Assembly (NCBI GenBank): GCA_000165345.1
Contig: CM000431.1
Location: 352,001 to 416,000, forward strand
Direction of reading: 5' to 3'
Length of the DNA stretch: 64,000 nucleotides
The position numbers were made by a program, and so were the translations under genes. Shown in pieces: positions 3,001 to 50,096 of the stretch. Within the stretch, counting starts at the first letter, position 1, and the number at the start of each line of letters is the position of its first letter. Under the pieces are notes generated by a model that made no database searches, was not told where the DNA came from, and was given only the letters and a program-made list of their open reading frames with translations.

Positions 3001-6000
3001 ACAACATTAGAATAAGCATATTTTATCTGTGTTGACCATAAAAAGTCATTTACTGATAGCTGAGGCCATACAGAAAGTACTGGGTACGAAGTGCTGCATG
3101 TGGGTGATTCCTGTGCGTTATTAATACCAGAAGAATTATTTTGAGTATTTGTCGGCTGATTATTTGATGAGTTATCTTTTTTAATTAGTAATGGATGAGC
3201 GTGGGACTGGAATGAAGGATTGAGAAGCGAAGCTGACATATTATTATTACTAAGAAGGGAATCTTGAAGATACTTTTCAGATGCGTTAAAGTAAAGGAAT
3301 TCCAAAAGTTTTGGGAAAATTGGAGCAATCATGTTCACAGCCTGGTTATATAAGCTCATTATAGAGGCTCCATAAGGACAATAGTCACAAGGAGAGGTAG
3401 AATCTTGAAGCTTCACAATATCTTTTGAAATCAAATAGGACTGAACTATTCTTGAATGATTATAATTGGCAGCGTTTCTGAACATACAATTTATAGCAAA
3501 AATGCATGTAACCACTTTTGATAATCTTGAGATGGAATTATGGTCAACTTCTACATTTTTAAAATCTTTGCAAGCTTCTTGAAGAGTAGGTAACACCTGA
3601 TATTGTAAATCTGCGATCGAGATGTTTCTACTTGTTCCAAGAAATGTGAATAGAGAAATTAATGGATGGTTTGTTAGGATTGCTGCAAAAGCTGGAGGAA
3701 GAGAATCATCAACAATTGACCTTAAAACGTGATAAGGACCTCCTTGTAAAATAAACTGGTTAATTGTATCATGATTAGATAAGTATCCACATAGAAAACG
3801 TCCTACAATTGCCATTCTATCTGAAATTAAGAGATCTTTCGATTTTTTTGGAATTTTTATTGGCGTATAATATTCTTCAGGAGAATCCAAACTTTCCTTA
3901 CTAATTTCCGAAATTGGTTCCCATTTTGGAAGGCATTTTTGGATGAATCTAATCTGGAGAATAGCTGAAACTGAGATAAGGGAAATTGTCTTGGCTAGTT
4001 GGGAATGGTACCTAACAATCTCTTCAAATGCATTTCCAACCAAAGTTGCAATTTCACCCATTCTGTCAATGTGAATTGCATGGCTGGATGTAAGGAATTG
4101 AGAAAGTAAAATTAAAGGCTTAAAGTTGATGCTTTTCATAAGCTTAATGCCATCATTATGAAGAAAGAATATTGGAAGGTTTACCGCTAATATATTCAGA
4201 ATATCATCATTTTGAAGAATTCCAAAATTTATAGAATATAAAATAAATGGAATCAAATGATTATTAATTAAGTCTGGAACAATCGTTGGATCATTTGAAA
4301 CTAGTGGAATTAGTAATTGTATAACCAAAGAGTAATTCAAAAGTGAGTAAGTTTCTGGATACATTAATATGAGCATTAGACAGCTTCTATATATTGAGTC
4401 TTCTGACATCAGAAGTTCATATTGTATCTTTGATTGAGAAATTATTGGGTTTGAATCAGAATTTGAAACCAGGCTATTGTTATTTGGATGAATAAAAAGT
4501 TCCATAAATTTTAAAGATGTTTTGATAATCCATTGTCTTATGAGAATTACTCCTTCATCTTTAATAATCTTATTCTTGTACTCCTCTTTGGGAGAATCAA
4601 AGTAATACTTTTCTGATTGTAACAATCCTATTTCATATTGAAGTCTGGAAAGCATAATCTTATATATTGGCTTATTCTGTTGAAGTAGAAAGGAAATGTA
4701 AGTTTTCTTCTCTAACAAAGTTTCTAAGGCTCTGCAAATTGGCAAGACTAAAATAATGTAATAAGGATGGCGAATAGTAGAAATAAAATCAATAAATGCA
4801 ATAAGTATCGTAATGTGATGAGGAATATAAATATAAGAAGTAGAAGAAGATGATGAGTTTGTTACTATTGAATTAGGAGGTGGGTAAAGCTGCATTACCA
4901 AAATATAAATACCAATAAGTTCCATAACAAAATTGATCATTTCTTCCTCGAACTCAGCCATAATAAGGTTTGGGATGATTTTTGAAGAATCATTAATAGT
5001 TTTCTTCTGGAATTCCAAATCTAAGTTTTCATAATAATTATTGATCAAAAGTATCTCATCTTTAGCACTTTCCAAGTCCATATATGATGATAATGAAGTA
5101 TTATATTTCTTATGTAGCTCTACACTTGTTTGGTTATCAAGTTTATTACCTTTATAGTAACAATTCTCACCATCTTCATTACCATTATTTTCCTCAATCT
5201 TATCATAATTAATTTGGATCTCACTGAGTCTTTGTATTACTTGATCAGGTAATGGATAATTAACATTATTAAATATACTGGGATCAATGTACTCTAAAAT
5301 GTTGAATTGAGAATAATCCCCTTCAAAATCCAAAAGATTATTGGAAAGATTTTGATCATTATATTTGTACTGATTAAGAGATTCCGGAGGCTTCTTGATA
5401 AACTTTGGAAGTGGTCTATCCTTGTGATCATTAATATAATAAAGTATATCCCAAATAATCCTACTAATAAGACCATAAGAATTTGTGAAATTTAGTGCTT
5501 GAACGATAACTTTTGGAAAGATTCGATCTTGTAACATTAATGTAAGAAGTTCAACAATAGACCTCATACTAGTAATAAATCTGTATTGCTCGTTATTATT
5601 ATTGAGCTTTACCTTGGAATTACCTTCGAAAATGCTCAAATGACAGAATTCAAGGATTTCAATTGAATCTGGGATTAAAGTTGTATTTACCTGACAAATA
5701 TTAACTAAGTTATTGGTTGAGAAACCTGGAAAACTGAGTAAAGTAGTATATTTAACATCAACCCATTTCCTACGGAGCCATTTATCGCTGTAGCTCTTTA
5801 AGATTCGAACATAATGGTTTACAATAGACTTTAAACATATAGGTACCTTATATTTTCTCATTAAATCATCAACTTCAGGCTTGGAATTAACAGAAATAAG
5901 ATCCTTAAATTGAATCATTAAAATATGTGATTTATGATAATCAAAGCACATTTTGCATTCTTTTTCTTCAGAATCTGAATCTTTCCTAATAAAATGATTA

Positions 6001-31755: not shown

Positions 31756-34700
31756 ATGAATAGGGAAGAGAATCCTTCAGGCGGATCCAGTGAGGTTTCA
31801 CAAGAAAACCCTGAAAATCATGAAGGGATTCAAAATGGTGAAAATATTTCTGAAGACTGGAATCCAGTTGAGGGGGATATAAGAGCTACAGTCTCCAATG
31901 ATCGTCATCAAGCTCAAAATAACAATTTGGATACTGGAATTCATACCTCGAATAGTTTAAGTTCCGAAAACTATGTAGTTGTTGGTTCTTCAGAAAATGA
32001 GATGAGCGAAGAAAAGAGGTTCAAAATTGTAGTTAGACCTTTAAATGGGAGGGATTTAACAGTTGAAGCTTCTCAAACCTCAACAATTCGCCAGCTAAAA
32101 GTTCTGATAGAGGTACAGAGCGGGATTGAAGCTATAAACCAACGTCTAATTTTTCGAGGAAGATGTATGCTTGATGATGATACTGTTGGTACATATATTA
32201 AAGAGGATGGAGTAATAATACATTTGGTTCCATATGCAAGAAATCAGAGAAATGAAGGCTCAGCTCAACCTGCTTCTGAATCCAGATCAAGAGCTTCGGG
32301 AACTGGAGGAAATGCTGCTAACATCCACAACCTTTTTGCTGCAACATCTGGAATACCAGGTTTGAACACATCAATAGGAGGATTTCCTGGTGCAATGATG
32401 TTTGGAGCAATTAGATTAGATGGTGAAACAGGTCTTCCCTTGGAAGCTGAAGATTTGATGCAAAGAGTGTTGAGAACTTTTGGAGATGCAGTAAACGGTA
32501 ATGGGATAGATCAAAATCTGATGAATATTTCCACAGGAACTGGAGATAACAGAAACTTGGGCTCAGTAACGTTTGATTCATTCGCTGTTGGCCAACCAAC
32601 AACAATACCTGGCTTCTCAGGACTTATTTCTAGTACAGAAAGAAGCAATCAGGAGTCTTTATCCTCCAACACTGATGCAAACAGAACCACAACATCCGCA
32701 TCAACTGGTGCTACCGCCAATAATTCTGCAAACTCATCCGCTACTGTTACAGGAACTGAAGGTAGGAGAAGCTCAAATACTAATGGTGCCAATATGAACC
32801 GTTCTGGAAGCAATACGGACTCTAGGTTAAACAACAACTCAGCACAAGCTCAAGGAAATTTCAGAGGTGGGAACGGAGAAGGTATTAGAGGTGATCCGAT
32901 GAATAGCAACCCAATTGGGAGGATTGGGACAATTGTTTCCAGAATTTTCCAGGCCTTTAATCAACCAGTAGGAGAAGGAATCCAGGAAGGAGAAACCAGG
33001 TCTGAAGGCAGAGTTAGTCAGGCTGGAATCGGAAATGGAACTGGGTTGGAAACTGGGGCTAGGGCTGATGTGGGTTCTGGCGCTAACCAGACTGTAGCTT
33101 CTGATAGAACTTCAGGAAACACTACTTCCCAGGATGTCAGGGGGAGAGTTATTTCAAGTCCAGCCTCTGGTCTGAGCTGGACCCAGATTGCATCTTCTGG
33201 GGCTCTGAATACCGGTAGAACAGGTGTACTGCCAATAGGACGTCCAGGTTTAGCAGTTGCAACGATTCCAATCTCTAATTTTTCAATTCCAATTACAATT
33301 AGAGCTACTTCTTCTACGGGGATCCCCTCAATCAATCTTTCTCAGAGCTCAAATACAGTAGCCAGCGTAGCTGCACCCGCCCAGGGGGAGTCAGCCTCTG
33401 CAAGAGCTCCAACAGATACTGGTAGCACTCCATCATCTAATACAAATGTGTCTGAGGCCTATAGAACTTCTTCAAACAATTTCTTTAGGAATATCTCAAA
33501 TGTCCTAGAAGAATCAGCAAATCAGCTACGAACAGTTGCTGCTGGAATCAGAGAAATGAGTGGATTAGAAGGTCCAAGTAGAACTGAACAGAATAGGGAG
33601 GGCTCATCCTCTTCGTCCTCTCTACCTCCAATCCCCTCTAGTGTGAGTAGCAGAAGCATTTCGGGTGAAAATTTGGCTTTGAGTGGCCAGACTTCTGACT
33701 ACATTCAGCACCATTCGCATAGACTTTATATATCTAATGAAGTGGTTCATAGGTTCCTTCCTTGGGACTCTCTTAACGAACTGATGGATATATTGGAGAG
33801 AGATTGTGGATGGAGAAGACCCAGAATTACAATTCCTCCCCCTGTGGATTCTATTGATGCTAGCCCATTGGCAATCTTTATTTCAGTATACCTCCAGGCT
33901 ATGTCAATAGTTCAGTCCAATTTAATGCAAATACAAGCATGGCAAGAGAGGTTTGCCAGATTAGATATCCCAAGACTATGCTATACAGTACATTTACTTG
34001 CGCTTATTTCACATATTTCGGCTCATATTGGCTCACTTTTAGCCTGGCTATTCCAAAATATGGCGCAACATGTCGAACAGGACAGACTTATTGAAGGACT
34101 ACAGTGGAATAGGTCTAGTAATGAAATTGAGAATCCTATAGATATAGTAGAAAAAAGACAAGATACTTCAGAAGAAACTAAAGGAATGGATGTAGATGAA
34201 GAGACTCCATGTGAATTGATTGGAGAAGATATCTTAAATAATGCTAATTTGAATCAAGATAACCAGGATATCAAAGATAATACAGGAAATGTAGCGAAAA
34301 TGTTTGAAAGAGATAGTTCTAGCTTTGGTTTTAATAATGCAAATACAAACTCATCCTCCAATGTGGGCTATGATCAAAACAACGAAGAAATAATAAATAA
34401 GCTTCCTGATGAAATTAGGGAAAAATGGGAAAGATGGACTGGTAATCCACAAAACTTCTCCAGAAATGTTTTTGCCTCATTCTCCACCAGACCCTTCAGT
34501 GATACATACCAACAAGGTGATGTGTTCTCCAGCAGCTCGAGTTTTGGATTCTCCCAACCCTCCAATGAGAATGGAAACACATCAGGTAGTAGAATTAATA
34601 GTCATCCTAGCTCCCAAGAACTTTTGAGAATGATTATTCACCAAACAGAAGCTAATTTGAATATTAGCAGCTCCTCGAATTCTCGTAATTATACTAATAT

Positions 34701-34827
34701 TCAGGCTGAATACCGTTCAATGCTAATCAGAGACCTAATAAATATTGCAAGGAATGACTCTGACTTTCTTAATAATCGAAGCAGATTTCCGTACCTACAA
34801 AGAATTATTTCCCTTTTATATGAGTAA
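31756..34827 (+). CDS. Ubiquitin-like (UBL) domain protein with a long Ser/Thr/Asn/Gly-rich linker and a conserved-looking C-terminal domain (BAG6/Scythe-like, tentative).
   Basis: ATG at 31756. The UBL domain is FKIVVRPLNGRDLTVEASQTSTIRQLKVLIEVQSGIEAINQRLIFRGRCMLDDDTVGTYIKEDGVIIHLV. The rest is low-complexity, then a structured C-terminal ~350 aa. Confidence 0.6.
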   Translation: MNREENPSGGSSEVSQENPENHEGIQNGENISEDWNPVEGDIRATVSNDRHQAQNNNLDTGIHTSNSLSSENYVVVGSSENEMSEEKRFKIVVRPLNGRDLTVEASQTSTIRQLKVLIEVQSGIEAINQRLIFRGRCMLDDDTVGTYIKEDGVIIHLVPYARNQRNEGSAQPASESRSRASGTGGNAANIHNLFAATSGIPGLNTSIGGFPGAMMFGAIRLDGETGLPLEAEDLMQRVLRTFGDAVNGNGIDQNLMNISTGTGDNRNLGSVTFDSFAVGQPTTIPGFSGLISSTERSNQESLSSNTDANRTTTSASTGATANNSANSSATVTGTEGRRSSNTNGANMNRSGSNTDSRLNNNSAQAQGNFRGGNGEGIRGDPMNSNPIGRIGTIVSRIFQAFNQPVGEGIQEGETRSEGRVSQAGIGNGTGLETGARADVGSGANQTVASDRTSGNTTSQDVRGRVISSPASGLSWTQIASSGALNTGRTGVLPIGRPGLAVATIPISNFSIPITIRATSSTGIPSINLSQSSNTVASVAAPAQGESASARAPTDTGSTPSSNTNVSEAYRTSSNNFFRNISNVLEESANQLRTVAAGIREMSGLEGPSRTEQNREGSSSSSSLPPIPSSVSSRSISGENLALSGQTSDYIQHHSHRLYISNEVVHRFLPWDSLNELMDILERDCGWRRPRITIPPPVDSIDASPLAIFISVYLQAMSIVQSNLMQIQAWQERFARLDIPRLCYTVHLLALISHISAHIGSLLAWLFQNMAQHVEQDRLIEGLQWNRSSNEIENPIDIVEKRQDTSEETKGMDVDEETPCELIGEDILNNANLNQDNQDIKDNTGNVAKMFERDSSSFGFNNANTNSSSNVGYDQNNEEIINKLPDEIREKWERWTGNPQNFSRNVFASFSTRPFSDTYQQGDVFSSSSSFGFSQPSNENGNTSGSRINSHPSSQELLRMIIHQTEANLNISSSSNSRNYTNIQAEYRSMLIRDLINIARNDSDFLNNRSRFPYLQRIISLLYE

Positions 34828-37675: not shown

Positions 37676-39192
37676 ATGTTGATAAATAATGAGAATGTGA
37701 GGGCAGAAGAAGAGAATGGTCGTAGACCAACAAGAAACGAAACTATTGTCTATAAGATAGTAAATTATATGTCATCTTTAATTGGTGGAATTAACGATAA
37801 TGTGGGTAGAAATAATCCGTGTATTGGTATTTTAAGTCCAATGTCTCCAGTTATGATAACAGATCATGTTAAGACAGTTGGGAATACAATGGTTTTACCA
37901 AGTCCAGAACCAATAATTCAGATGATTCCAAATCAAAATCTAAGGAATAATATGTTCTTTAACGTTTACAGCAATGATAAAAAATATGTTCATAAATTTG
38001 GGCCTAAAGTTACTCCATATACTAATTTGAATAACGGATTATTAGCTATTAATGAAAAAGGAGACCAAATTGTTACTGGAAATATATCACTCATGAGTTC
38101 TCCTACTGATATGTGTTTAAACTCTTCAAGAAATAAATTAATTAATCCTAGTAGTTATTTTTCGAGATTAAGGAATCCAATCAGTGAATGTGGAGGTCTT
38201 GTAAAATCACCAATCAATTCATGTTTTAGTGGCCAAATCAACAAGGCTAATGAGTCATCTATTACTGAAATACTTGTCTCACCTGAACTTGCTCAAACAC
38301 TTCAGCAGATAATTTCAATAATTTCCCACCAAATAGAAATTGATGATTCTGAAAATTTTATTAATATTAATAATATCAAAGGATCTGTCAAGATTAACAG
38401 ATTTCAGAGAATTAACAAGAAAAGTACAATTGGAGGATTAAACTATGCCCTTATGAGTTATTCAGCAAGTATTATTCAAAAACACTTTAGAAATTTTGAT
38501 AATAATAGAATGGTAAGATATATTAATCCAGTTACTAGAAGTAAATTTTCAAAAAATCAAATCATGAATGCAATTCATATTATTCAAAGATATTGGAGAA
38601 TTTATATGTATCGTAACCAGATTATGAGAGAGCTCTTAATAAAAAATGTTATGACTGCTAGAAATGCTGCAAGTTGTAAGATAGCTTCTTTATGGAAAGG
38701 ATATAAAACAAGAAAGTTTATGGATTCTATCATTAAAGATGTGTATATCAAATGGATTTGGAATAATGATGATTCAGCTAATAATAATTGTTCTTCTGAA
38801 ATCAGCAATACTCAAAACTATGAATATTCAAAATATGAAGTTAAGTTAAGAGGATCTTTCACGTGTAAGCCATGGCAAGAACATTTAAAACTTAATTGGG
38901 ACAACCAGGAAAACTGTTTTCTAATTAATATATGTCTCACAAAAGGGGCTCATTATCTCCAATTTATAATTAATGATGAAATTAAAGCTTGTGGGAGTAT
39001 GGAAATTGTTGTTTTACCTATCATTGGAGTATCCAATAAAATCAATATTGTTGGAGAATCCTACAAAAGTTCACGTAAGTTTATTCTACTTTCCTATCAA
39101 CTAACACATTTTTTACTCTTTTTTATTTTTATTTTTCAGTAAAGAGAATTAGATCAAATATTCAAAAAATTACTTCAGAAATTCATGTTTAG
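37676..39192 (+). CDS. IQ-motif protein with a C-terminal AMPK-beta-type carbohydrate-binding module (CBM48-like). Probably two exons, 37676..39074 and 39140..39192.
   Basis: ATG at 37676. IQ motifs are IQKHFRNFDNNRM, IQRYWRIYMYRNQ and ASLWKGYKTRKF. VKLRGSFTCKPWQEHLKLNWDNQENCFLINICLTKGAHYLQFIINDE aligns with the AMPK-beta GBD VYLSGSFNNWSKLPLTRSHNNFVAILDLPEGEHQYKFFVDG. A GTAAGT donor is at 39075 and a TTTTTCAG acceptor at 39139. The track's hydrophobic tail LLSYQLTHFLLFFIFIFQ is intron read-through. Confidence 0.55.
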
Positions 39193-39433: not shown

Positions 39434-39836
39434 TAATAATGTATGCTTTAGACTAAATAACTAGGTCAAATTAAACAAATAATAGTAATTAATACTAAAT
39501 TGATAATATAGAGTGGTAAAAACGTAAAACTCTAATTAAAACGGCTAAAAATAAGGAAATAATTTATTATTAATTTATGATTGTGATCATAATAATAACA
39601 TTTTAGTAGAATTATCACACTTTAAAGATTTATTCAATAAAGCTGGATACTAATTAATAAAATTATTTTTGTAAATTGTGTATTAATCAATTGAGTAAAA
39701 TTTCGTGATCATACTGGTCTAAGCTACTTTTTTGTAATAATAATAATTGTTACTATTAGAATATTTACAAAAGTAAAGCTAATTAAGTAGATTTTTGAAA
39801 AGTAATGGTTAAAGGGACACTACAATACCTTTGAAA

Positions 39837-41795
39837 ATGTTTAGTCGTCTATACAATAGAAACGTGGATAGCAATAATCAAAGCTCTGGTAAATCAAACA
39901 GAATTAGAATCACCTTAAATGACAGAATAAATTCTAGAGAAGCTGCAAAATTTCCAATCACTGAAAGCAGATCTTTTATCAATCATGGAGAAAAAGATGA
40001 TTATTCGGTAGTAAGAAGAAGTAATACTATAGGAAGAATCATACAAAATGGATCTCAGCAAATCTTCTATCCTATAAACCCCAATAATAACTTTACTAGA
40101 CAACAAATGAGAGGTTGTTACAATTCAAATATAGTACAAAATAGTCACTCAAACTTTCAACAAAATGGTTCCATCGATTCTGCTCTCAGTAGCAGGAGAT
40201 CCAATGAGTTTAATACAATTCAATCTTTAAGATCAACATCTGATTTAGCTTCGAAGATTTCGTCAAACGTAGTATTAGCAGAAGATCAGGAACCTAAAAT
40301 AGCTGGAAACAAAGTAAAGTCTATTACATCTTCAATTCCTCTAAATTTAATAGAGAAAGATTCGGCTGAGAGATTAAAATCCTCTGTAAATAGTCAGATT
40401 AATGAAATTGAAGATAGCGAAAATGAAAGACTAAATAGTAATAGAAATAGATATGGACTTTCACTTGATTTATATTCACTTACTGAAGATTCTGCGAGAA
40501 AAATAAAGCCAGAATTGTCAGTTGAATTGGAATGTTCGATTAATGAGACAAGTGAAAATAATGAGGTACTTGTAAGGAGTATTTCATTACAGAAGGAAAA
40601 GTTACCTAATTTGGAGATTTTTCCTTTGGAAACAGTGAATAGCCCAAATTCAAAAAGTAACAATAGAGAAAACTGTCAATTAAGGAGATTTATTGATAAT
40701 AGTGAAATCACTGGATTAATTTCAAAACTTAACAAATCAGCATTTTATTTTGTAAGGTTTAATTTACTTTTACATTTAGCTGCAATAGTTATTCAATGTT
40801 ATTTCAGACGATATCTATGCAAGAAATATCTATATTTCAGAAAATATGGACCAATTAAGCTCTTGAACACTTCTGCAATGCAAATACAAGCATGTTGGAG
40901 AAGTTTTCTGACTAGATTTGGCGCATCTCTGTGTGAAGGGACGCCTTCAAACAATGGAAGTCATAAATGTATAAATGAGTATAATTGGTCGACTCTTCAT
41001 GAGAAGAATTTTACTGAGATTGTTAAAAAAAGAAATCAAAATGCAAAATGCATACAAAATTTCTGGAGAAATATATATTTAAAAAATATCAACATTGAGA
41101 GGGAAATCCTGACAAATTCCATATTCTCAGCTAGAGCTTTAGCTAAAGAGACTATTGAGAAATTCCTTCTTGGTTATTTAGTTAGGAAGAATGCTGATTC
41201 TAGATATAAACTAGTTCCTATTAAATGGAGTTGGAGCGTTCAGGAGATTTCAGAAATCTTCATTTTGCAAAAAATTAGAAACAGATGGTCAGAACCAAAG
41301 AAGATGTGGCTCAATCAGGAGGAAAATGTCTACAGATATAATCTTTTCCTATCAAATGGTATCCATCAAGTTGTATTTAAAGTGTACTATAAGAATAAGG
41401 AGTGTAAAGGAGATCAGGATTACAAGATTTTATGTAATTCATCCTTGGAAACTACTCCAAGTGATGAATTCCAGTTTGTAAACAATATCAGTGTTTACAA
41501 TAATAACTATACTGTTAGTGCTTTCAAGTACATGAGAGATAGAATCTCATACATTAATTTCTCAACTATAAATTATTTGGACAACCTAAACCCCGATATT
41601 ATGCAAAATATTGAGCAGGATCTAGGCTATATTGCATTATCTCCGAGTTACAAGCAGCGCCTTGATATTGAATACTCAGAAACTGAATATGAAAACTCTC
41701 CCTATAAAGAGTTTGACAGAATTAAGAATGATGTAATTAACACTCCAAGTACTAACTTAGACTATAGTCCAGGAACTCAGCACTTTATCCATTAA
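39837..41795 (+). CDS. Tandem paralogue of the preceding gene: an IQ-motif protein with a C-terminal CBM-like domain.
   Basis: The track M at 39831 is a TTG; the ATG is at 39837. IQ motifs are IVIQCYFRRYLCKKY, MQIQACWRSFLTRF and KCIQNFWRNIYLK. The C-terminal WSWS...NVYRYNLFLSNGIHQVVFKVYYKN has the same architecture and order as gene 37676. Confidence 0.6.
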   Translation: MFSRLYNRNVDSNNQSSGKSNRIRITLNDRINSREAAKFPITESRSFINHGEKDDYSVVRRSNTIGRIIQNGSQQIFYPINPNNNFTRQQMRGCYNSNIVQNSHSNFQQNGSIDSALSSRRSNEFNTIQSLRSTSDLASKISSNVVLAEDQEPKIAGNKVKSITSSIPLNLIEKDSAERLKSSVNSQINEIEDSENERLNSNRNRYGLSLDLYSLTEDSARKIKPELSVELECSINETSENNEVLVRSISLQKEKLPNLEIFPLETVNSPNSKSNNRENCQLRRFIDNSEITGLISKLNKSAFYFVRFNLLLHLAAIVIQCYFRRYLCKKYLYFRKYGPIKLLNTSAMQIQACWRSFLTRFGASLCEGTPSNNGSHKCINEYNWSTLHEKNFTEIVKKRNQNAKCIQNFWRNIYLKNINIEREILTNSIFSARALAKETIEKFLLGYLVRKNADSRYKLVPIKWSWSVQEISEIFILQKIRNRWSEPKKMWLNQEENVYRYNLFLSNGIHQVVFKVYYKNKECKGDQDYKILCNSSLETTPSDEFQFVNNISVYNNNYTVSAFKYMRDRISYINFSTINYLDNLNPDIMQNIEQDLGYIALSPSYKQRLDIEYSETEYENSPYKEFDRIKNDVINTPSTNLDYSPGTQHFIH

Positions 41796-42556: not shown

Positions 42557-42827
42557 AATCTACAATAAATAATTAAGGGGTACCTATTATTTAAGGAGAA
42601 AAGAATGCAAAAAGGTTTGTAGAAAAATTGTTCAAGTCTAAGGGAGAATTTCTTAAGAAATATATAGTTTTGTAGAGTGAAGGCTGAAATATAAAATTTT
42701 TGTTTGAAGGTTCAAAGGTATTTTGGTAGTGGATCATGATCTTTTGATTGTGTGGGAATAAGTTAATAATATTAGAGTACACACTGAAGCTATTGAGTTA
42801 ATTAGTTGGAGGAGATTGTACAAGAAA

Positions 42828-45236
42828 ATGGAGAATTCTGCGATAAATCATCCTTTTAAGAAGAAACTGAATAGAGTACTAGAGCTAAAGCTAGGAGAGA
42901 ATGAGGAATTAATTAATGGGCTTATCAGCTTAGACACAGTAGATGATATATCTGAGGGGATCCCAAAGCACTTAGTTACTGAATTACTGAATACTAAAGG
43001 TCAAAACAAGTGTAGATCCATGCAGCTTTTAATATATAAGTACCATCTAATGGTTGCAGAGAGTTGTTTGGACTCTTTAAAACCTTTTATTGATGATTTG
43101 AGAGCAATGAATAATGAAATCAGATCATTTGAAAAGGAGTTTAATGAGAATGTTACAACTCAGCTAACAAACTGGAATAAATTTACTTTTCCCCTTTTGG
43201 AGGAGTTTAGCATGATACAAGATCAAATACAATTAGTAGAGAATAAGAAAAATATGTGTAATACAATGTTATCACACTTAAGTACCAATTTTGTGGGCGA
43301 TATTAAGAACTTAAAATCTTCCATGGATGAATCCAAGGGGAATCTCTTGTTATCTTTAGTTGCAATTTACAACAAATGTATGGCCAGCGAAATCAATTCC
43401 AAGAAACTGATTGAAATCCTTTCTGGTGATTCACTAGATTCACAAAATACTTCGGAATCTGTCCTCTCTAAGCTTAAGAGTGACCGTGAATACTCTAGTA
43501 TGATACCACAAATTCTGATTAATCTGAAAGCATTAATATTAGATTTGGAACTTAAAAGAAATCAGCTGGCGACTGAAATCACAAGCTTCTTGGTTGATCT
43601 AGTGATCTCTAAGTCACCTGATGAATTTAATGATCAATTTGAACAGTCACAGAATGATGAAGATGAGACAGAAGGAATAGAAAAAGGAACTGAAGAGAAA
43701 GTATGTATTTTTGGAAGTCAAAGCTTTCAGGAGTCTGTCGAAATACTCGAGCTTCATCATAAAGAACAGTGCCATTCTTTACTTACCTGCGTTGTTGAAA
43801 CCAGATCAAAGTACTTGGAATATAGATTTAACCATATTATTGGTCATGGAATTTCTATTGGAGACAACAACTATTCCTCTAATCTACTGGACTACCTGGA
43901 GTCTATTTTCGAATGGATTCGCGTTTGTGGAGTTTCCATTGAGTCTGAATTTCTTATTAAAGCCTTTGGCTATCAGATGTGTGAAGATTGTGAGTTTGAA
44001 GAAAAGCATCTGGACTTTAACCAAAGCGATACTTCTGAGCCAGAATCACTTGATAACATGGCCAAGAATATTTTAAATAGCATTACTCATACACTTTGTA
44101 TCCCCTTTTCTGGAGCAATCAGAGATATTCTTCGTCAGTTTCATCCTCCACAGACATCCAGGCCGGATTCCACTCATCATTTTGGTAACCTAACTTCTCT
44201 TAAGATAGGAATTACTATTGGAATTAAAATTGCACATTTAATCAATAATTATGTTGAGACATTAATTCCAATGTTTAAGATCCTACCTAAGAGATTTAGC
44301 TCAAAACCAAAACAAGCCCGTCTTGCATTTCCTTTACTTATTCAGCGTTTTAAAGATTTAAGAGAAGAAGCAATTGCTCAATATTATGTGTATGCGGGAA
44401 TTGTCAAAGAAAACATATCCTCTCGCATTTCTGAAATCATAACTACAGACTTTTCCATATCCATTTTGGTCATGGAATGGTCTTCCCTCTTAAAAGACAT
44501 CCTCTCTACAATACAAAATGGAGTTCTTGCGATTTCAAATGACAACATTCCAAAAATTGAGGACATTAACTCTACCCTAACATCTATGCTTGACACCTTT
44601 ATTAACCCTATGTTTAATGCTATCTGTTCAGTTGCTACTTCAGACAAAACTCCTCTTGCATCAATCATTCGGATCAATAACGTAAACTACTGCCTCTCAG
44701 TACTAACAACTTTTCAAAAAATGAAAGTCCTATTAGAGAAACAGATTGAAATTGCAAATCAAATTATCAATGATGAAGTTTCCAAACTAACTGATTTTTT
44801 AAAAGAAGAATTTTGTGATAAATATAGATTTGGGGAACTGCTTAAAGAGCTTGAAGCCAAAAAAGAAGGTTTAACAACCCCCCAAGTATTTGAGGGATCT
44901 GCTAATAGTAATACTGACCCCAAACTTGAACCTAATTCTAACTACAATAGTAGTGAAAGCGATCCAGGCCAGGACCCACTTTTAATACTATCACAGGTTA
45001 TCATTGATCAGTTCTTTGAAAGTATCTTACGATTTGGAGCCATCCCTTTTGCCAACGCTGATCGAATTCAAGATAAACAAATTAGAAATAATATTTTAAA
45101 AAACCTTTTCGCACACATTTCCCGCCAATACGAGTTAATATTTGACCAAATTACCCTAATTTGGCCTCAAAAAAGTTCTTTTCTCAGGCACGACCCTCAG
45201 CAAATTAAGCTTATTTTTTCTAGTTTGACCGTTTAG
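42828..45236 (+). CDS. Large, mostly alpha-helical hypothetical protein of ~802 aa. It is possibly a vesicle-tethering-complex (CATCHR/COG/exocyst-type) subunit, but that assignment is weak.
   Basis: The track M at 42816 is a TTG; the ATG is at 42828 (MENSAINHPFKK). The long ORF has coding composition. I recognise no diagnostic motif. Confidence 0.5.
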   Translation: MENSAINHPFKKKLNRVLELKLGENEELINGLISLDTVDDISEGIPKHLVTELLNTKGQNKCRSMQLLIYKYHLMVAESCLDSLKPFIDDLRAMNNEIRSFEKEFNENVTTQLTNWNKFTFPLLEEFSMIQDQIQLVENKKNMCNTMLSHLSTNFVGDIKNLKSSMDESKGNLLLSLVAIYNKCMASEINSKKLIEILSGDSLDSQNTSESVLSKLKSDREYSSMIPQILINLKALILDLELKRNQLATEITSFLVDLVISKSPDEFNDQFEQSQNDEDETEGIEKGTEEKVCIFGSQSFQESVEILELHHKEQCHSLLTCVVETRSKYLEYRFNHIIGHGISIGDNNYSSNLLDYLESIFEWIRVCGVSIESEFLIKAFGYQMCEDCEFEEKHLDFNQSDTSEPESLDNMAKNILNSITHTLCIPFSGAIRDILRQFHPPQTSRPDSTHHFGNLTSLKIGITIGIKIAHLINNYVETLIPMFKILPKRFSSKPKQARLAFPLLIQRFKDLREEAIAQYYVYAGIVKENISSRISEIITTDFSISILVMEWSSLLKDILSTIQNGVLAISNDNIPKIEDINSTLTSMLDTFINPMFNAICSVATSDKTPLASIIRINNVNYCLSVLTTFQKMKVLLEKQIEIANQIINDEVSKLTDFLKEEFCDKYRFGELLKELEAKKEGLTTPQVFEGSANSNTDPKLEPNSNYNSSESDPGQDPLLILSQVIIDQFFESILRFGAIPFANADRIQDKQIRNNILKNLFAHISRQYELIFDQITLIWPQKSSFLRHDPQQIKLIFSSLTV

Positions 45237-45690: not shown

Positions 45691-48600
45691 ATGAGTAACT
45701 ATAAACAAACTGAACTAAAAAGAAACAAGGGCGATTCAAGAGATGTTTCACTACTTTCTGCTTCAAGCTTGCATGAAGGCCAATCAAACATGCAAATGTG
45801 GAGGAGAAGGTGGGAGCCATGCCTACCACACATACTAAGATCCCCGTTATCTATTAAGGAAGTTTCAGCTTTTGAAGGAATGGGGAAAATGGAAAGATCT
45901 GACGTTTCTGCCTATTTTCCTTTAACATCTGGAAACAGTTTGGTGAAGTTTGAGGCCATTTCAGATGGAAGTAGCTCATGGAAGAAGTTTCCCGCCAGAA
46001 GAATCGGAGTAGTATTATCGGGAGGTCAGGCCTCAGGAGGTCATAATGTGATTGCTGGATTAATGTCTTATATTAAACTTTGTAACCAAAGTAGTCAGCT
46101 TTTTGGATTTTTAGGAGGCCCAGAAGGAGTATATAGTGGGAGATACAGAGAGTTAACTGAAGATGATATTAACGGTATACTTAACCAGGGAGGGTTTAAT
46201 ATTATTTGTTCAGGCCGTCACAAAATTGAAACAGAAGAACAAATGAGAGCTTCCTTGGAGATTTGTGAAAAACTCAAATTACATGGCCTAGTAGTAATAG
46301 GAGGAGATGATTCTAATACAAATGCAGCAGTTCTAGCAGAATACTTCAAACGTAACTCGTCTAGTACAGTAGTTGTAGGATGTCCCAAGACCATAGATGG
46401 AGATTTGAAAAACGAGGTAATTGAGACATCTTTTGGTTATGATACAGCAGTGAAAACTTATAGTGAACAGATTGGAAGTATTATGGATGCAATTAAAACT
46501 GAGGGATACGGATACTATTTTGTAAGGTTGATGGGAAGATCTGCATCTCACATTACTTTAGAATGCGGTCTTCAGACTAGAGCGAATATGATCTTGATTG
46601 GAGAAGAAATTAAGGAAGAGAACAGATCTTTGATGTCGATAGTAGACGAAATTGTAGAAATGATTCTAAAAAGAGATTCACTGGGAAAGAAACATGGAAT
46701 TGTATTATTACCCGAAGGGTTAATAGAGTTTATTCCAGAATTTGAGACTTTAATCAAAGAATTAAATCTTATTTTGCTTAAAACTAACGATAGAAAACAG
46801 ATTATAGATAGCTTAAGTCAAGAAATGAAGACTCTTTTCTTGGAGCTTCCTTCAGATGTACAAAATCAGCTCCTTTTAGAAAGGGATCCACATGGTAACG
46901 TTCAAGTAGCAAAGATAGCAACAGAAGAGTTGTTAGTACACATGGCAAAAGAAAAACTTGAGAGGGTAAAGAAGGATTATATTTTAGACAATGTTAAGAC
47001 TCACTACTTTGGATATGAAGGAAGATGCGCTTTACCTTCAAATTTTGATGCAAGTTATTGCTTTGCTCTTGGACATACTGCAGCAGCTCTTATAGACAAT
47101 CAGCGTTCAGGATATATGGCAGTAGTCAGGAAGCTAAGCTTAACTCCTGAACAATGGGAACCAGCAGGATGTCCTCTTACATATATGATGAATATTGAGC
47201 TTAGAAAAGGGAAGTCTGTTCCCGTTATTAAGAAGTACTTAGTAGATCTTAAAGGACAATCTTACTTAGCTTATTGTCAAGTTAGATCTGAGTGGAAGTT
47301 GAATGATTATTACAGAAATCCAGGACCAATACAATTTGATGGTCCTAATTCCGGAGTAACTAATTATATGATTTCTCCTCCAAGAGTGGAGGATTTACTT
47401 AGAATGGAGGATAGATGCGAGAATAAAATGAGTCATAAATTATCAGGGTCAGAAAGCTCTCAAAATAGATCAAAGGACGACATGAAGATACAGAAGATCC
47501 TTCTTTCAACAGCTTCCAAGTTTAACGATGATCTAATCATTTCCTCCTCATGCAGAGATTTAGATGCTTACATTATTACTAAATGTTTACCTCATCAGAC
47601 TGGGAGACACAACAGCAAAATACTACAATTAAAAGAGGAGGAATACTCATCAGGATTCACAGAGATAAGAGAGAACAGCCAGTCAAAATCTTCCATGGGT
47701 AATTCACTAGCTTGTGAGTCACTTGGATTAATTCTATCATGCCTTTCAACTCCTGGTACTCAGAATGTAATTTGTGGACTAGTCAATGGACTACCATCGC
47801 TTAAACAGCTTATAGTTTTTAAGTCTCTCTCAGACTTTTCAGAAGGAAAAGCTCTAAAAGTCGATCTTACTTCCGAAGGATCATTGGCTTTCTTTGAGAA
47901 TTCTCTCAATTCTGGAGGCTGTATATTCCCAAATGGAGTAGAAATAAAAATGAATGTCTCAGAAAAAAAGAGCTCAAATACAACTTTAAAAGCTAATGAT
48001 AACCAAGAATTCACAAACAGCTCTTGCGTTCTTTCATGCAAAGGGCTAGTTAGTAATGACTTCCTCTCTCAACTCTTGTCATTTTTTAATATGCGTGCAA
48101 TTGCAATTGTGGGGAACAGTGAGGCGGCAACGTTTGGCGCCTCTATATCGGAGCAATTAATTTGCATGTCGTTAAATGGCATGAAGAGTGAGATCCCAGT
48201 AGTGTTTGTTCCAGTTTGCTTGGAAAACAGTATTTCTCATCAAATGATTGAGACATGTATTGGATTTGACTCTGTAACTAAGAGTATTTCAACTTTGGTT
48301 GGAAATCTGTTAACAGATTCAGCTTCAGCAACAAAGTATTGGTATTTCATGAAGATGATAGGCGATAAGACTTCAAATGTTGCTTTAGAGGTTGGAATAC
48401 AAACTCATCCAAATTTGGTTGTAATTCCAGAAAGATATGCAGATGGAAAACTTTCAGTTTATGGTTCAGAAATGGCTGGGGTCACTTTAGATGATATTAT
48501 TACTGAAATTTGTGATATAATTTGTTTGAGATCTAATCAGGGAAATAATTTTGGCGGGCTCCTGGTATCAGAAGGTCTTTTTGACCAGGTATACCCAACA

Positions 48601-49674
48601 AGAGAGTATAGGAAGATATTTTCAAGGTTTAGCACTCAGAATTTATGTAATGCTTCAAATTCAGGATGCGAGATTCTGGGTTCTGAAAGTTTAAGTAGAT
48701 ATGAGAAAAAAGTTGTTGAGGATTTCAAACTTATATTTAGTGATATAGATACGAGACTTATTGAGAATTTGATTAATTCAAGAAAGATATGTGATGTTAG
48801 GACTGAGATTATACTCTCAGCTCTGGTTCAAAAGGAACTCAAATTTAGAAGGTCTAAGAATAAAATTAAGAATGGGATGAACCCAGTGTGCTTTAGTTTT
48901 ACAGATCAAGTCAGAGCTTGTATCCCTTCTGATTTTGACTCTACACTTGGATTAATGTACGGAATGCTTGCATCAAAAATAATTAATAGTAACTTGGTTG
49001 GGGGATATGTTACGGGGATTAAGGGGGTATTGAGCCAGACAGATAGTTGGAATATGTATGCTATTCCTATTTCCTCTTTAATGACTTTAAATATTGAAGG
49101 AGATAAAATACAGGATTCAAGAAACAACTCAAATCTTTCATTTGAATCAAAGAAACTTCTAACCGAATCTACACTAGGAAATGCTGGCCATCAACTTGAA
49201 TTCATATGCAAACTGAATTCCGTTAATTTGCGCAATAACCCTTCATTTAAACTTTTAATGAACCACATTGAAAAATGGGAAGTCGATAATACTTATGCTA
49301 ATCCAGGCCCTATTCAATACTTTAATCTATTCAAAAATTTATTCAACAGAACACTATTTGAAAGTGAATACGTTTATACGCGAAACCTAAAAGAAATGGA
49401 TCAAATATTACTTGAAATTAAGACATTATGCCAATTAGGTGTTGAAAAGGATATTTTAAACTCTACTATACAACACTTAAAGGCAATTCAAAATTCTATT
49501 TCAATAATGAGCAGCTGTAACCACAGAAAATCTAAACCAGAACAAATAGAATGCATACAGAAAACAAACTCAATAGCAAACTACACATCAAACTTAAAAT
49601 GCAAAAGCAATAATAATGAAACCAATCTGGAAATGATTGTTAACAATATTATTAATCAGGAAACTTGCAATTAA
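45691..49674 (+). CDS. Pyrophosphate-dependent phosphofructokinase (PPi-PFK), a long two-domain form with a catalytic N-terminal half and a degenerate C-terminal PFK-like half.
   Basis: ATG at 45691. The N-terminal half has GGDDS (VVIGGDDSNTNAAVL; Asp at the Gly position is typical of PPi-dependent enzymes), PKTIDGD (GCPKTIDGDLKN) and MGR (LMGRSASH). In the C-terminal half the same positions read VGNSEA, PVCLENS and MIGDKT, so the catalytic signatures are lost. Confidence 0.9.
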   Translation: MSNYKQTELKRNKGDSRDVSLLSASSLHEGQSNMQMWRRRWEPCLPHILRSPLSIKEVSAFEGMGKMERSDVSAYFPLTSGNSLVKFEAISDGSSSWKKFPARRIGVVLSGGQASGGHNVIAGLMSYIKLCNQSSQLFGFLGGPEGVYSGRYRELTEDDINGILNQGGFNIICSGRHKIETEEQMRASLEICEKLKLHGLVVIGGDDSNTNAAVLAEYFKRNSSSTVVVGCPKTIDGDLKNEVIETSFGYDTAVKTYSEQIGSIMDAIKTEGYGYYFVRLMGRSASHITLECGLQTRANMILIGEEIKEENRSLMSIVDEIVEMILKRDSLGKKHGIVLLPEGLIEFIPEFETLIKELNLILLKTNDRKQIIDSLSQEMKTLFLELPSDVQNQLLLERDPHGNVQVAKIATEELLVHMAKEKLERVKKDYILDNVKTHYFGYEGRCALPSNFDASYCFALGHTAAALIDNQRSGYMAVVRKLSLTPEQWEPAGCPLTYMMNIELRKGKSVPVIKKYLVDLKGQSYLAYCQVRSEWKLNDYYRNPGPIQFDGPNSGVTNYMISPPRVEDLLRMEDRCENKMSHKLSGSESSQNRSKDDMKIQKILLSTASKFNDDLIISSSCRDLDAYIITKCLPHQTGRHNSKILQLKEEEYSSGFTEIRENSQSKSSMGNSLACESLGLILSCLSTPGTQNVICGLVNGLPSLKQLIVFKSLSDFSEGKALKVDLTSEGSLAFFENSLNSGGCIFPNGVEIKMNVSEKKSSNTTLKANDNQEFTNSSCVLSCKGLVSNDFLSQLLSFFNMRAIAIVGNSEAATFGASISEQLICMSLNGMKSEIPVVFVPVCLENSISHQMIETCIGFDSVTKSISTLVGNLLTDSASATKYWYFMKMIGDKTSNVALEVGIQTHPNLVVIPERYADGKLSVYGSEMAGVTLDDIITEICDIICLRSNQGNNFGGLLVSEGLFDQVYPTREYRKIFSRFSTQNLCNASNSGCEILGSESLSRYEKKVVEDFKLIFSDIDTRLIENLINSRKICDVRTEIILSALVQKELKFRRSKNKIKNGMNPVCFSFTDQVRACIPSDFDSTLGLMYGMLASKIINSNLVGGYVTGIKGVLSQTDSWNMYAIPISSLMTLNIEGDKIQDSRNNSNLSFESKKLLTESTLGNAGHQLEFICKLNSVNLRNNPSFKLLMNHIEKWEVDNTYANPGPIQYFNLFKNLFNRTLFESEYVYTRNLKEMDQILLEIKTLCQLGVEKDILNSTIQHLKAIQNSISIMSSCNHRKSKPEQIECIQKTNSIANYTSNLKCKSNNNETNLEMIVNNIINQETCN

Positions 49675-49732
49675 TTCAATTACACATTTTGGCGGTAAGG
49701 CGCCAAAATGTGTGCAATCATATATTTTACGA

Positions 49733-50038
49733 AAAATTTAGTCCGAGATGAATCTCGCGAATCACTGAGATGCCAGGAAGTTACACAACTACTGTTATCC
49801 TTACACCGTACTACAGCGAACCCTTTTCCGTGCTCTGTTTCCAGCCTCCGGCGGTACGGGTTTCACTATCTCACAAGTCACCTCGGTCTCCACCAAGGCA
49901 ACTCTAGAGACTGCAGCCTTGTAATGGGCAGCCATCGTGCAATGTTACTTCCGGGATGTAGTGACACAGTATCCCATCCTAAACCTTTAACGACTCCACT
50001 TGGTTACAGCTGGGCGTTATCCCAGCCAGTCACTATCT
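49733..50038 (-). ncRNA. Signal recognition particle RNA (SRP/7SL RNA), about 305 nt, transcribed on the minus strand. Ends are approximate (±10 nt).
   Basis: Sharply GC-rich island in an AT-rich genome. The minus-strand read GUGAAACCCGUACCGCCGGAGGCUGGAAACAGAGCACGGAAAAGGGUUCGCUGUAGUACGGUG parallels the human 7SL S-domain GGUGAACCGGCCCAGGUCGGAAACGGAGCAGGUCAAAACUCCCGUGCUGAUCAGUAGUGGG (helix 8 GNRA loop GGAAAC, AGCA.GG, AAAA bulge). The minus-strand 5' end GGCUGGGAUAACGCCCAGCUGUAACC is Alu-domain-like (compare CCUGUAGUCCCAGCUACU). The 3' end runs into UUUUU (plus-strand 49732-49736), a pol III terminator. An AT-rich TATA-like stretch and TTTGGCGGGAA lie within 70 bp upstream (plus coordinates 50040-50107). 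The overlapping track ORF 49708-50040 is spurious. Confidence 0.7.
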
Positions 50039-50096
50039 AATGTTTTAGAATTTAGATTATTAAATACTTTACAATACTTTTGAATGACGGCTATTA

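Follow-up and report, generated by a model that had tools for sequence, protein, structure and literature searches.

A fused pyrophosphate-type phosphofructokinase of Cryptosporidium parvum with a predicted inactive C-terminal half

A two-domain phosphofructokinase gene

We examined a stretch of 64,000 nucleotides of Cryptosporidium parvum DNA (NCBI GenBank assembly GCA_000165345.1, contig CM000431.1, positions 352,001 to 416,000 of the forward strand), hereafter called the window, whose numbering is used throughout. An uninterrupted open reading frame (ORF) at 45691..49674 on the plus strand starts with ATG and encodes 1327 amino acids followed by a stop codon, and thus constitutes an intronless, complete coding sequence (CDS). 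The protein carries two phosphofructokinase (PFK) domains, of which the first has the residues expected of an enzyme that uses inorganic pyrophosphate (PPi) and the second appears to have lost them. As an overall explanation we consider it very probable that the gene is a fusion of a beta-type and an alpha-type PFK, in which a live N-terminal half is accompanied by a dead C-terminal half that may serve as its partner.

The translation matches, exactly and from end to end, the C. parvum Iowa II protein EAK89146.1 and three further C. parvum accessions, all of which bear the product name ‘pyrophosphate-dependent 6-phosphofructokinase’. By identity and architecture, the gene is the annotated C. 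parvum pyrophosphate-dependent 6-phosphofructokinase (EC 2.7.1.90), a beta-alpha fusion in a single chain that belongs to the ‘long’ PPi-PFK family. The Cryptosporidium hominis orthologue (A0A0S4TCQ1) shares a 90% cluster with the C. parvum protein. The window has a G+C content of about 30% and contains long uninterrupted ORFs.

Two PPi-PFK isozymes have been stated for C. parvum (PMC13599311), and their upstream distances have been tabulated as 455 bp for PFK1 (cgd3_1400) and 575 bp for PFK2 (cgd2_2130) (PMC1779779). The upstream neighbour of the gene described here stops at 45236, which leaves an intergenic gap of 454 bp. Because this gap agrees with the 455 bp tabulated for PFK1, the gene is very probably cgd3_1400. 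The main parts of the CDS are as follows.

45691..49674, + strand: complete CDS, 1327 amino acids plus stop, probably cgd3_1400 / PFK1 (ORF, identity to EAK89146.1, upstream distance)
45793..47352, + strand: N half, residues 35-554, beta-type, catalytically complete ‘long’ PPi-PFK domain by sequence match (TIGR02477, 1KZH, conservation)
47353..47547, + strand: inter-domain linker, residues 555-619, serine-rich and fast-evolving (codon comparison, structure model)
47548..49398, + strand: C half, residues 620-1236, alpha-type pseudo-PFK domain with a predicted full PPi-PFK fold and without the catalytic residues (hhalign, 1KZH, AlphaFold2 and Foldseek, tree, codon comparison)
49399..49671, + strand: C-terminal tail, residues 1237-1327, outside the PFK fold (profile alignment, codon comparison)

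The N half carries a complete catalytic apparatus

The Pfam domain PF00365 is found twice in the 1327-residue protein. The N half (residues 35-554) scores 647.3 bits against TIGR02477 PFKA_PPi, above the curated equivalog cut-off of 587.95 bits, and matches the PPi-PFK of Borrelia burgdorferi (1KZH) both by sequence (E value 3.5e-138) and by structure (Foldseek TMt 0.89). Among 109 full-length homologues, 131 of its 520 positions are conserved at 93% or more. The motifs that make up its active site are listed below, with the residues to which they align in Escherichia coli PFK and in the B. burgdorferi (Bbu) enzyme.

46300..46323, + strand: GGDDSNTN, residues 204-211, with D206 (aligned with E. 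coli Asp103), D207 (Bbu Asp177, a determinant of PPi use) and N211 (Bbu Asn181); alignment, roles from PMC12203962
46384..46404, + strand: PKTIDGD, residues 232-238, with K233 (Bbu Lys203) and D236 (general base, E. coli Asp127); alignment, roles from PMC12203962
46531..46539, + strand: MGR, residues 281-283, fructose 6-phosphate binding motif aligned with E. coli M169-G170-R171; invariant in 109 of 109 N halves
46885..46899, + strand: DPHGN, residues 399-403, with H401 on the beta-hairpin (Bbu His384), where it bars the ribose of ATP; alignment, role from PMC12203962
47011..47025, + strand: GYEGR, residues 441-445, equivalents of E. coli H249 and R252; alignment

Four determinants of donor specificity, taken from the Borrelia structure, are summarized in a 2025 review (PMC12203962): Asp177 of the GGDD motif fills the place of ATP's alpha-phosphate, Lys203 of PKTIDxD positions PPi, Asn181 blocks the adenine, and His384 of the beta-hairpin blocks the ribose. 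All four are present in the N half, as D207, K233, N211 and H401, respectively. An aspartate at the position of D207, which gives GGDD instead of the GGDG of ATP enzymes, occurs in 107 of the 109 fused homologues. The general base D236 is invariant across the 109 N halves, as are the residues of a complete fructose 6-phosphate site (M281-G282-R283, E342, Y442 and R445).

Because the full catalytic apparatus is present together with all four of the residues that exclude ATP or position PPi, the N half should be the catalytic half, with PPi as the expected donor when fructose 6-phosphate is phosphorylated. A preliminary description of this DNA, made from the sequence alone, had already placed GGDDS, PKTIDGD and MGR in this half (at residues 204, 232 and 281), where every catalytic and PPi-specific residue is indeed found, and had predicted PPi dependence from the aspartate of GGDDS. 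That aspartate is insufficient evidence when taken alone, but K233, N211 and H401 concur with it. PPi use also agrees with a published report of PPi-specific PFK activity in C. parvum (Denton et al. 1996, cited by PMC4621754). We therefore hold it to be highly probable that the enzyme is PPi-dependent.

The C half is a complete but degenerate copy of the domain

A BLASTP comparison of residues 1-570 with residues 571-1327 gives an E value of 7e-25 over 414 columns at 21% identity, and pairs GGDDS with GNSEA, PKTIDGD with PVCLENS and MGR with IGD. When the 109 full-length homologues were aligned and split into halves, and the two resulting profiles were compared by hhalign, the halves matched with a probability of 100% over 502 columns, which reach from the N-terminal extension as far as the NPGPIQ motif. 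Because this profile match spans the whole domain, the C half is a complete domain copy rather than a fragment. Identity between the two PFK halves is only 20-21%.

The fold appears to be intact. By sequence, the C half matches 1KZH with an E value of 2.4e-36. An AlphaFold2 model of the C half alone has a predicted local distance difference test score (pLDDT) of 80.8 and a predicted template modelling score (pTM) of 0.83, and its best match in the PDB by Foldseek is the Borrelia PPi-PFK (1KZH/2F48; E value 1e-35, TMt 0.73-0.75, about 570 columns). Against TIGR02477, the C half is matched at 222.5 bits, below the cut-off of 587.95, and so falls outside the enzyme family as curated. The counterparts of the active-site motifs are as follows.

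48109..48126, + strand: VGNSEA, residues 807-812, degenerate counterpart of GGDDS, with S810 for Asp206, E811 for Asp207 and, beyond the motif, F815 for Asn211; half-to-half alignment
48211..48231, + strand: PVCLENS, residues 841-847, degenerate counterpart of PKTIDGD, with Lys replaced by V842, the general-base Asp by E845 and the last Asp by S847; half-to-half alignment
48328..48348, + strand: ATKYWYF, residues 880-886, containing the dipeptide K882-Y883; conservation and alignment
48355..48372, + strand: MIGDKT, residues 889-894, degenerate counterpart of LMGRSA, with D892 for the fructose 6-phosphate-binding Arg; half-to-half alignment
48901..48915, + strand: TDQVR, residues 1071-1075, counterpart of GYEGR, with the alpha-type Gln and the Arg kept and Gly-Tyr lost; alignment

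The histidine of the DPHGN hairpin has no counterpart in the aligned C half, and a scan for GGD or for the PKTIDxD lysine in the C halves of the 109 fused homologues found neither in any of them. Judged from its sequence, the C half is catalytically dead, having lost both its donor-site and its general-base residues. The preliminary description had proposed just such a built-in pseudoenzyme domain from VGNSEA, PVCLENS and MIGDKT (residues 807, 841 and 889), and had considered that the substrate-binding residues might all survive at shifted positions. These motifs do lie at homologous positions in both the BLASTP and the hhalign alignments, and none of the aligned donor-site or catalytic positions, nor that of the MGR arginine, has the same residue in the two halves. 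Catalytic residues at shifted positions were rejected, since none appeared in the full-length profile alignment or in the scan of the 109 C halves; two sugar-phosphate residues, E961 and R1075, are kept in place.

The halves derive from two old paralogues

In an exhaustive search with the C half, the leading hits were C halves from other long proteins, and after them came stand-alone proteins of 500-640 amino acids, which fall into two motif classes. The catalytic class (SGGxAPGGHN, GGDDSNTN, PKTIDGD and GYEGR) has among its members bacterial enzymes and the beta subunit of Arabidopsis PFP, and the degenerate class (CGRQxPGGHN, GGxxTxTD, PVxxxGD and GYQAR) includes plant proteins from Musa (618 amino acids) and Triticum. 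We call the latter alpha-like on account of their motif state, length and tree position; the sources do not themselves name them alpha. The degenerate class favours the hidden Markov model (HMM) of the C half (64-168 bits; 64-72 bits for the plant alpha-like proteins), whereas the catalytic class, both plant beta and bacterial, favours that of the N half (150-215 bits). A neighbour-joining tree of 38 sequences and 507 columns, a single method with limited sampling, separates the C halves and degenerate stand-alone proteins from the N halves, plant beta subunit and bacterial enzymes in 100 of 100 bootstraps.

All 109 full-length homologues share this layout, in which a single chain holds two complete PFK domains and the catalytic half comes first. 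The beta-alpha fusion is present in at least 109 alveolate and stramenopile proteins, from Cryptosporidium species, gregarines, Vitrella, chromerids, ciliates and stramenopiles. Because the HMM scores split in this manner and the tree divides at 100/100, the gene is, as far as sequence comparison can tell, a fusion of two old paralogues, with a beta-type N half and an alpha-type C half, and not the product of a recent internal duplication. The term ‘duplicated’ in the preliminary description thus holds for a deep paralogy that is shared with the plant PFP subunits and was later followed by fusion, but intragenic duplication is contradicted by the HMM scores and the tree.

The C half remains under purifying selection

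Codon alignments of C. parvum with C. hominis give a ratio of non-synonymous to synonymous substitution rates (dN/dS) of 0.064 for the N half and 0.17 for the C half, and those with Cryptosporidium ubiquitum give 0.046 and 0.126, respectively. The C half is clearly constrained, and hence under purifying selection, although this selection is two to three times more relaxed than in the N half.

Between C. parvum and C. hominis, the inter-domain stretch of residues 555-654 (window 47353-47652) contains 10 non-synonymous and 0 synonymous differences, with 90% identity versus 98.8% in the N half. Residues 556-601 hold 8 of the 34 differences in the whole protein between these species, and four of these replace serines. 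In the AlphaFold2 model, pLDDT falls below 70 in the blocks 570-589, 610-629 and 650-669 (model numbered from residue 40). Both PFK isozymes are among the enzymes with an elevated relative phosphorylation index (PMC13599311).

A possible role for the dead half

An AlphaFold2 model of residues 40-1235 (pLDDT 86.4, pTM 0.90) confidently predicts the placement of the two halves relative to each other. At the 93% threshold, only 40 positions are conserved in the C half, against 131 in the N half, and most of these are glycines and prolines of the shared core. The dipeptide K882-Y883 (within SATKYWYF) is invariant in 109 of 109 C halves and is also found in the plant alpha-like proteins. It aligns with Q161-R162 of E. 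coli PfkA and with K243-Y244 of the Borrelia enzyme; the E. coli sequence used was checked by nine landmark residues, which fall at their literature positions with a constant offset of one. Arg162 of bacterial PFK acts in trans, entering the active site of the neighbouring subunit to bind the phosphate of fructose 6-phosphate (PMC12203962).

The reciprocal Lys-Tyr dipeptide of the N half is kept in only about 57 of the 109 homologues and is replaced in Cryptosporidium (…TEGYGYYF). Its retention tracks that of xGR and [YF]..R in the C half, with an odds ratio of 12 (Fisher p 3e-8) that is uncorrected for phylogeny.

These observations suggest a model in which the two halves would pack as an intramolecular pseudo-heterodimer, taking the place of the bacterial homodimer or of the separate plant alpha and beta subunits. 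The dead half would be neither a second enzyme nor a sensor of fructose 2,6-bisphosphate, but an obligatory partner that stabilizes the live half and probably donates Lys882-Tyr883 to the fructose 6-phosphate site of the N half, placed as the trans-acting Arg162′ is in bacteria. Each half would serve the sugar-phosphate site of the other in trans, such that the contribution from C to N would be indispensable and that from N to C would be free to decay once the C site had died. We advance this trans-complementing role as a tentative proposal, with somewhat less than even confidence.

A further step is more doubtful still. The alpha-type half of Cryptosporidium may have gone further than that of other alveolates, shedding the relic sugar-phosphate pocket and remaining only as an intramolecular partner that gives Lys882-Tyr883 in trans. 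The N half, lacking the reciprocal dipeptide, could then no longer work as a homodimer, and the protein would be an obligate pseudo-heterodimer. If this were true, the parasite-specific interface between its halves might be targeted.

Several points weigh against the interpretation of the gene as a PPi-using live half with a dead partner. Isolated PFK2-N of Toxoplasma roughly equals the full-length protein in its activity in vitro (PMC8836295), and the C half is therefore dispensable for catalysis as such in that species. The E. coli Arg162 aligns with the tyrosine rather than the lysine of the dipeptide, whose role is read from sequence alignment, and the association between dipeptide and pocket ignores phylogeny. 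The alpha domains of Plasmodium falciparum and Plasmodium knowlesi PFK9 have been reported to be active as individual domains (PMC7733947, PMC6234871), so that calls of inactivity based on motifs are contested in a sister clade. With regard to the donor, the second isozyme (cgd2_2130) means that the PPi activity of extracts is not assignable to one gene, and no recombinant Cryptosporidium enzyme was found in the literature searched.

Other explanations of the two halves

The C half might instead be an allosteric sensor whose relic active site binds fructose 2,6-bisphosphate or another sugar phosphate and thereby tunes the N half. The half is of alpha type, and the alpha domain has been called regulatory in other systems (PMC6234871). 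Furthermore, MGR is kept in 49 of the 109 C halves, and many C halves from outside Cryptosporidium also have PEG, GYQ[GA]R and a G-R pair, a set that plausibly resembles a sugar-phosphate pocket. The C. parvum C half itself retains E961 and R1075 at sugar-phosphate positions and, among the other alpha-type signatures, K882-Y883-W-Y-F and Q1073.

In the ten Cryptosporidium sequences, however, this pocket is mostly gone. Where MGR would stand, these sequences read IGD or IGE, without the arginine; TDQVR takes the place of GYQGR and lacks its Gly-Tyr; the G-R pair has become NGVE, and SCLSTPG replaces the GRQxPG loop. Only E961 and R1075 are left. The C half is also fast-evolving in Cryptosporidium, since the identity of Cryptosporidium to Vitrella is 31% for C halves and 57% for N halves, against 45% and 53%, respectively, between Vitrella and Paramecium. 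Denton and colleagues (1996) reportedly saw no effect of fructose 2,6-bisphosphate on the C. parvum activity. A sensor function for this half thus seems unlikely.

A different alternative concerns the donor, which might be ATP despite the PPi-like sequence. P. falciparum PFK9 is described as plant-like yet ATP-dependent (PMC7733947), and the PKTIDxD lysine by itself is not diagnostic of the donor (PMC12203962). In the fused PFKs of Theileria, Babesia and Cyclospora and in a second one of Vitrella, GGDGSNSN and E[AS][ST]G[SY] replace GGDDSNTN and DPHGN. The Theileria and Babesia proteins are named ‘Probable ATP-dependent’ in UniRef, a name that the second Vitrella protein bears as well, and the pattern would fit a change of donor to ATP inside this family of fusions. 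The aspartate and the hairpin histidine thus co-vary, and the C. parvum protein, which has GGDDS, His401 and Asn211, lies on the PPi side, apart from this distinct set. Toxoplasma PFK2, which likewise has GGDD, uses PPi only (PMC8836295), and the PFK activity reported for C. parvum is the PPi-specific one cited above. Use of ATP by this enzyme is therefore very unlikely.

A second, cryptic catalytic site made of non-canonical residues in the C half would accord with the activities reported for the individual alpha and beta domains of the two Plasmodium PFK9 proteins (PMC7733947, PMC6234871). However, none of the donor-site and general-base residues survives (the positions hold S810, E811, V842, E845 and S847, along with D892), the half falls far under the TIGR02477 cut-off, and Toxoplasma PFK2, which is built of two domains in the same way, has a C domain without detectable activity (PMC8836295). 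We consider such a site exceedingly improbable.

Finally, a recent, lineage-specific tandem duplication within the gene, with the second half simply decaying, would fit two PFK domains that stand in tandem at 20-21% identity, but its likelihood is close to nil because the tree places the C half among alpha-type proteins of plants and other alpha-like proteins that stand alone rather than beside its own N half (100/100), because ciliates, chromerids, gregarines and stramenopiles share the same fusion, and because a C-half dN/dS of 0.13-0.17 denotes constraint. The HMM scores and the tree led us to reject it. We thus return to the fusion of two old paralogues, with the dead half as a possible partner of the live one, as the preferred reading of this gene.

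Significance

Cryptosporidium obtains its ATP mainly from glycolysis, and an argument for PPi-PFK as a drug target has already been published (PMC4621754, PMC6114080). A PPi-linked PFK provides a higher net yield of ATP and has no human counterpart, and it is a standing candidate in this regard. The preliminary description, which had supposed an amitochondriate-style glycolytic parasite and stressed its energy economy and drug-target relevance, was apt on both counts: the source is C. parvum, which depends on glycolysis for ATP (PMC6114080), and the relevance stands, although it is already in reviews (PMC4621754). For Toxoplasma, PPi-PFK is essential chiefly through its control of pyrophosphate (PMC8836295).

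The two-domain architecture, the GGDD argument, the label ‘pseudo-PFK domain’ and the assay of each half on its own have all been published for Toxoplasma PFK2 (PMC8836295). The present analysis adds the placement of the dead half as an alpha-type paralogue under selection, the unusual degeneracy of the Cryptosporidium copy and the idea of a trans-acting Lys-Tyr dipeptide. The classification of the gene is unchanged by these points, and what remains new is modest, namely that the alpha-type half has degenerated further in Cryptosporidium and that Lys-Tyr is conserved asymmetrically.

Neighbouring features in the window

A protozoan signal recognition particle (SRP) RNA gene (RF01856) lies at 49774-50013 on the minus strand, 100 nucleotides downstream of the PFK stop codon and on the opposite strand, and scores 150 bits against a gathering score of 65. 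An ORF of 110 amino acids (49708-50040, + strand) runs antisense to it. At this place, C. hominis GCA_045269125.1 has a coding call of 115 amino acids (5021-5368 of the C. hominis locus sequence), which is probably spurious.

The PFK model of the chipmunk genotype I Cryptosporidium sp. is 1460 amino acids long and includes PF06842 (DUF1242) in addition to PFK. It looks like an annotation fusion of two genes because, in C. hominis, a separate DUF1242 gene of 72 amino acids is located just downstream of PFK (5568-5786 of the C. hominis locus sequence).

The upstream neighbour of the PFK gene (42816-45236, + strand) has a weak COG6_N match of 24.2 bits, under the cut-off of 27.4. Its TTG start is probably an artefact, since the 802-residue C. 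hominis product fits a start at the methionine of MENS.... Two other neighbouring ORFs (37676-39142 and 39831-41795, both + strand) encode IQ calmodulin-binding motifs, and the former additionally matches an AMPK1_CBM glycogen-binding module at 27.1 bits, against a cut-off of 26.8. The sole G+C-rich stretch of the window (32001-34000, 43% versus about 30%) is inside an ORF of 1023 amino acids (31756-34827, + strand) whose only Pfam matches are the overlapping ubiquitin-family domains PF00240 and PF11976 at residues 90-158. A search for tRNA genes found none within the window.

Comparison with known systems

The closest characterized parallel is Toxoplasma PFK2 (TGGT1_226960), which likewise is a two-domain single chain with GGDD in its N half and a C half devoid of the key residues. 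Separate expression of its halves gave activity with PPi for the N half and none for the C half, and a knock-down was rescued by neither on its own, such that both were needed in vivo (PMC8836295). The C. hominis orthologue of the C. parvum gene serves as the GGDD exemplar in the motif alignment of the same paper (PMC8836295). A putative orthology to Toxoplasma PFK2 is read here from motif state, length and tree position, and our comparisons drew on proteins other than T. gondii PFK2, P. falciparum PFK9, cgd2_2130 and named plant PFP-alpha subunits. Unlike most C halves of the fused family, that of Cryptosporidium is further degenerated, without the MGR arginine or Gly-Tyr, and its N half is without Lys-Tyr.

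P. falciparum PFK9 (PF3D7_0915400) also combines an N-terminal beta and a C-terminal alpha domain in one polypeptide, and both domains model best on 1KZH (Mony et al. 2009, as cited in PMC6234871 and PMC7733947). In contrast to the PPi use predicted for the C. parvum enzyme, it is described as ATP-dependent (PMC7733947). There was no structure of any apicomplexan long PFK in 2020 (PMC7733947), and none appeared among the matches of our sequence and Foldseek structure searches. Elsewhere in the fused family, some long homologues, among them proteins of the gregarine Digyalum and of Gymnodinium and others from transcriptomes or assemblies, no longer have catalytic motifs in either half (the N half may read, for instance, GGRRDLSW and PHNKNLH). 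These seem to be double PFK proteins that are pseudo-enzymatic throughout.

The likeness to plant PFP is one of lineage, in that Arabidopsis PFP-beta falls together with the N half, and the alpha-like proteins of Musa and Triticum fall together with the C half. The signatures GRQxPG, GYQxR and KYW[YH]F are common to the alpha halves of the wider family and to the plant alpha-like proteins. In contrast to the C. parvum fusion, plant PFP alpha and beta are separate gene products, and MGR, PEG and GYQAR are all present in the sampled alpha-like proteins of plants, a site of which little is left in the Cryptosporidium C half.

The PPi-PFK of B. burgdorferi (1KZH / 2F48) is the best match to both C. 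parvum halves in structure and in sequence. It is a homodimer of two identical active chains, whereas in C. parvum an apparently dead ‘chain’ is fused covalently to a live one.

Membership of the animal and fungal tandem ATP-PFK family was rejected, given that the N half scores only 50.7 bits against TIGR02478 (cut-off 708.4) and that superposition of the whole model on human and yeast PFK by Foldseek is poor (root mean square deviation about 18 Å, TM 0.34-0.37). Nevertheless, the course of events is alike. Animal and fungal ATP-PFK-1 (TIGR02478), whose C half was turned into allosteric sites, was also formed by duplicating the domain, fusing the copies and retiring the second active site. The C. 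parvum protein represents an independent event of this kind, in which the two halves came from the alpha and beta lineages of PPi-PFK.

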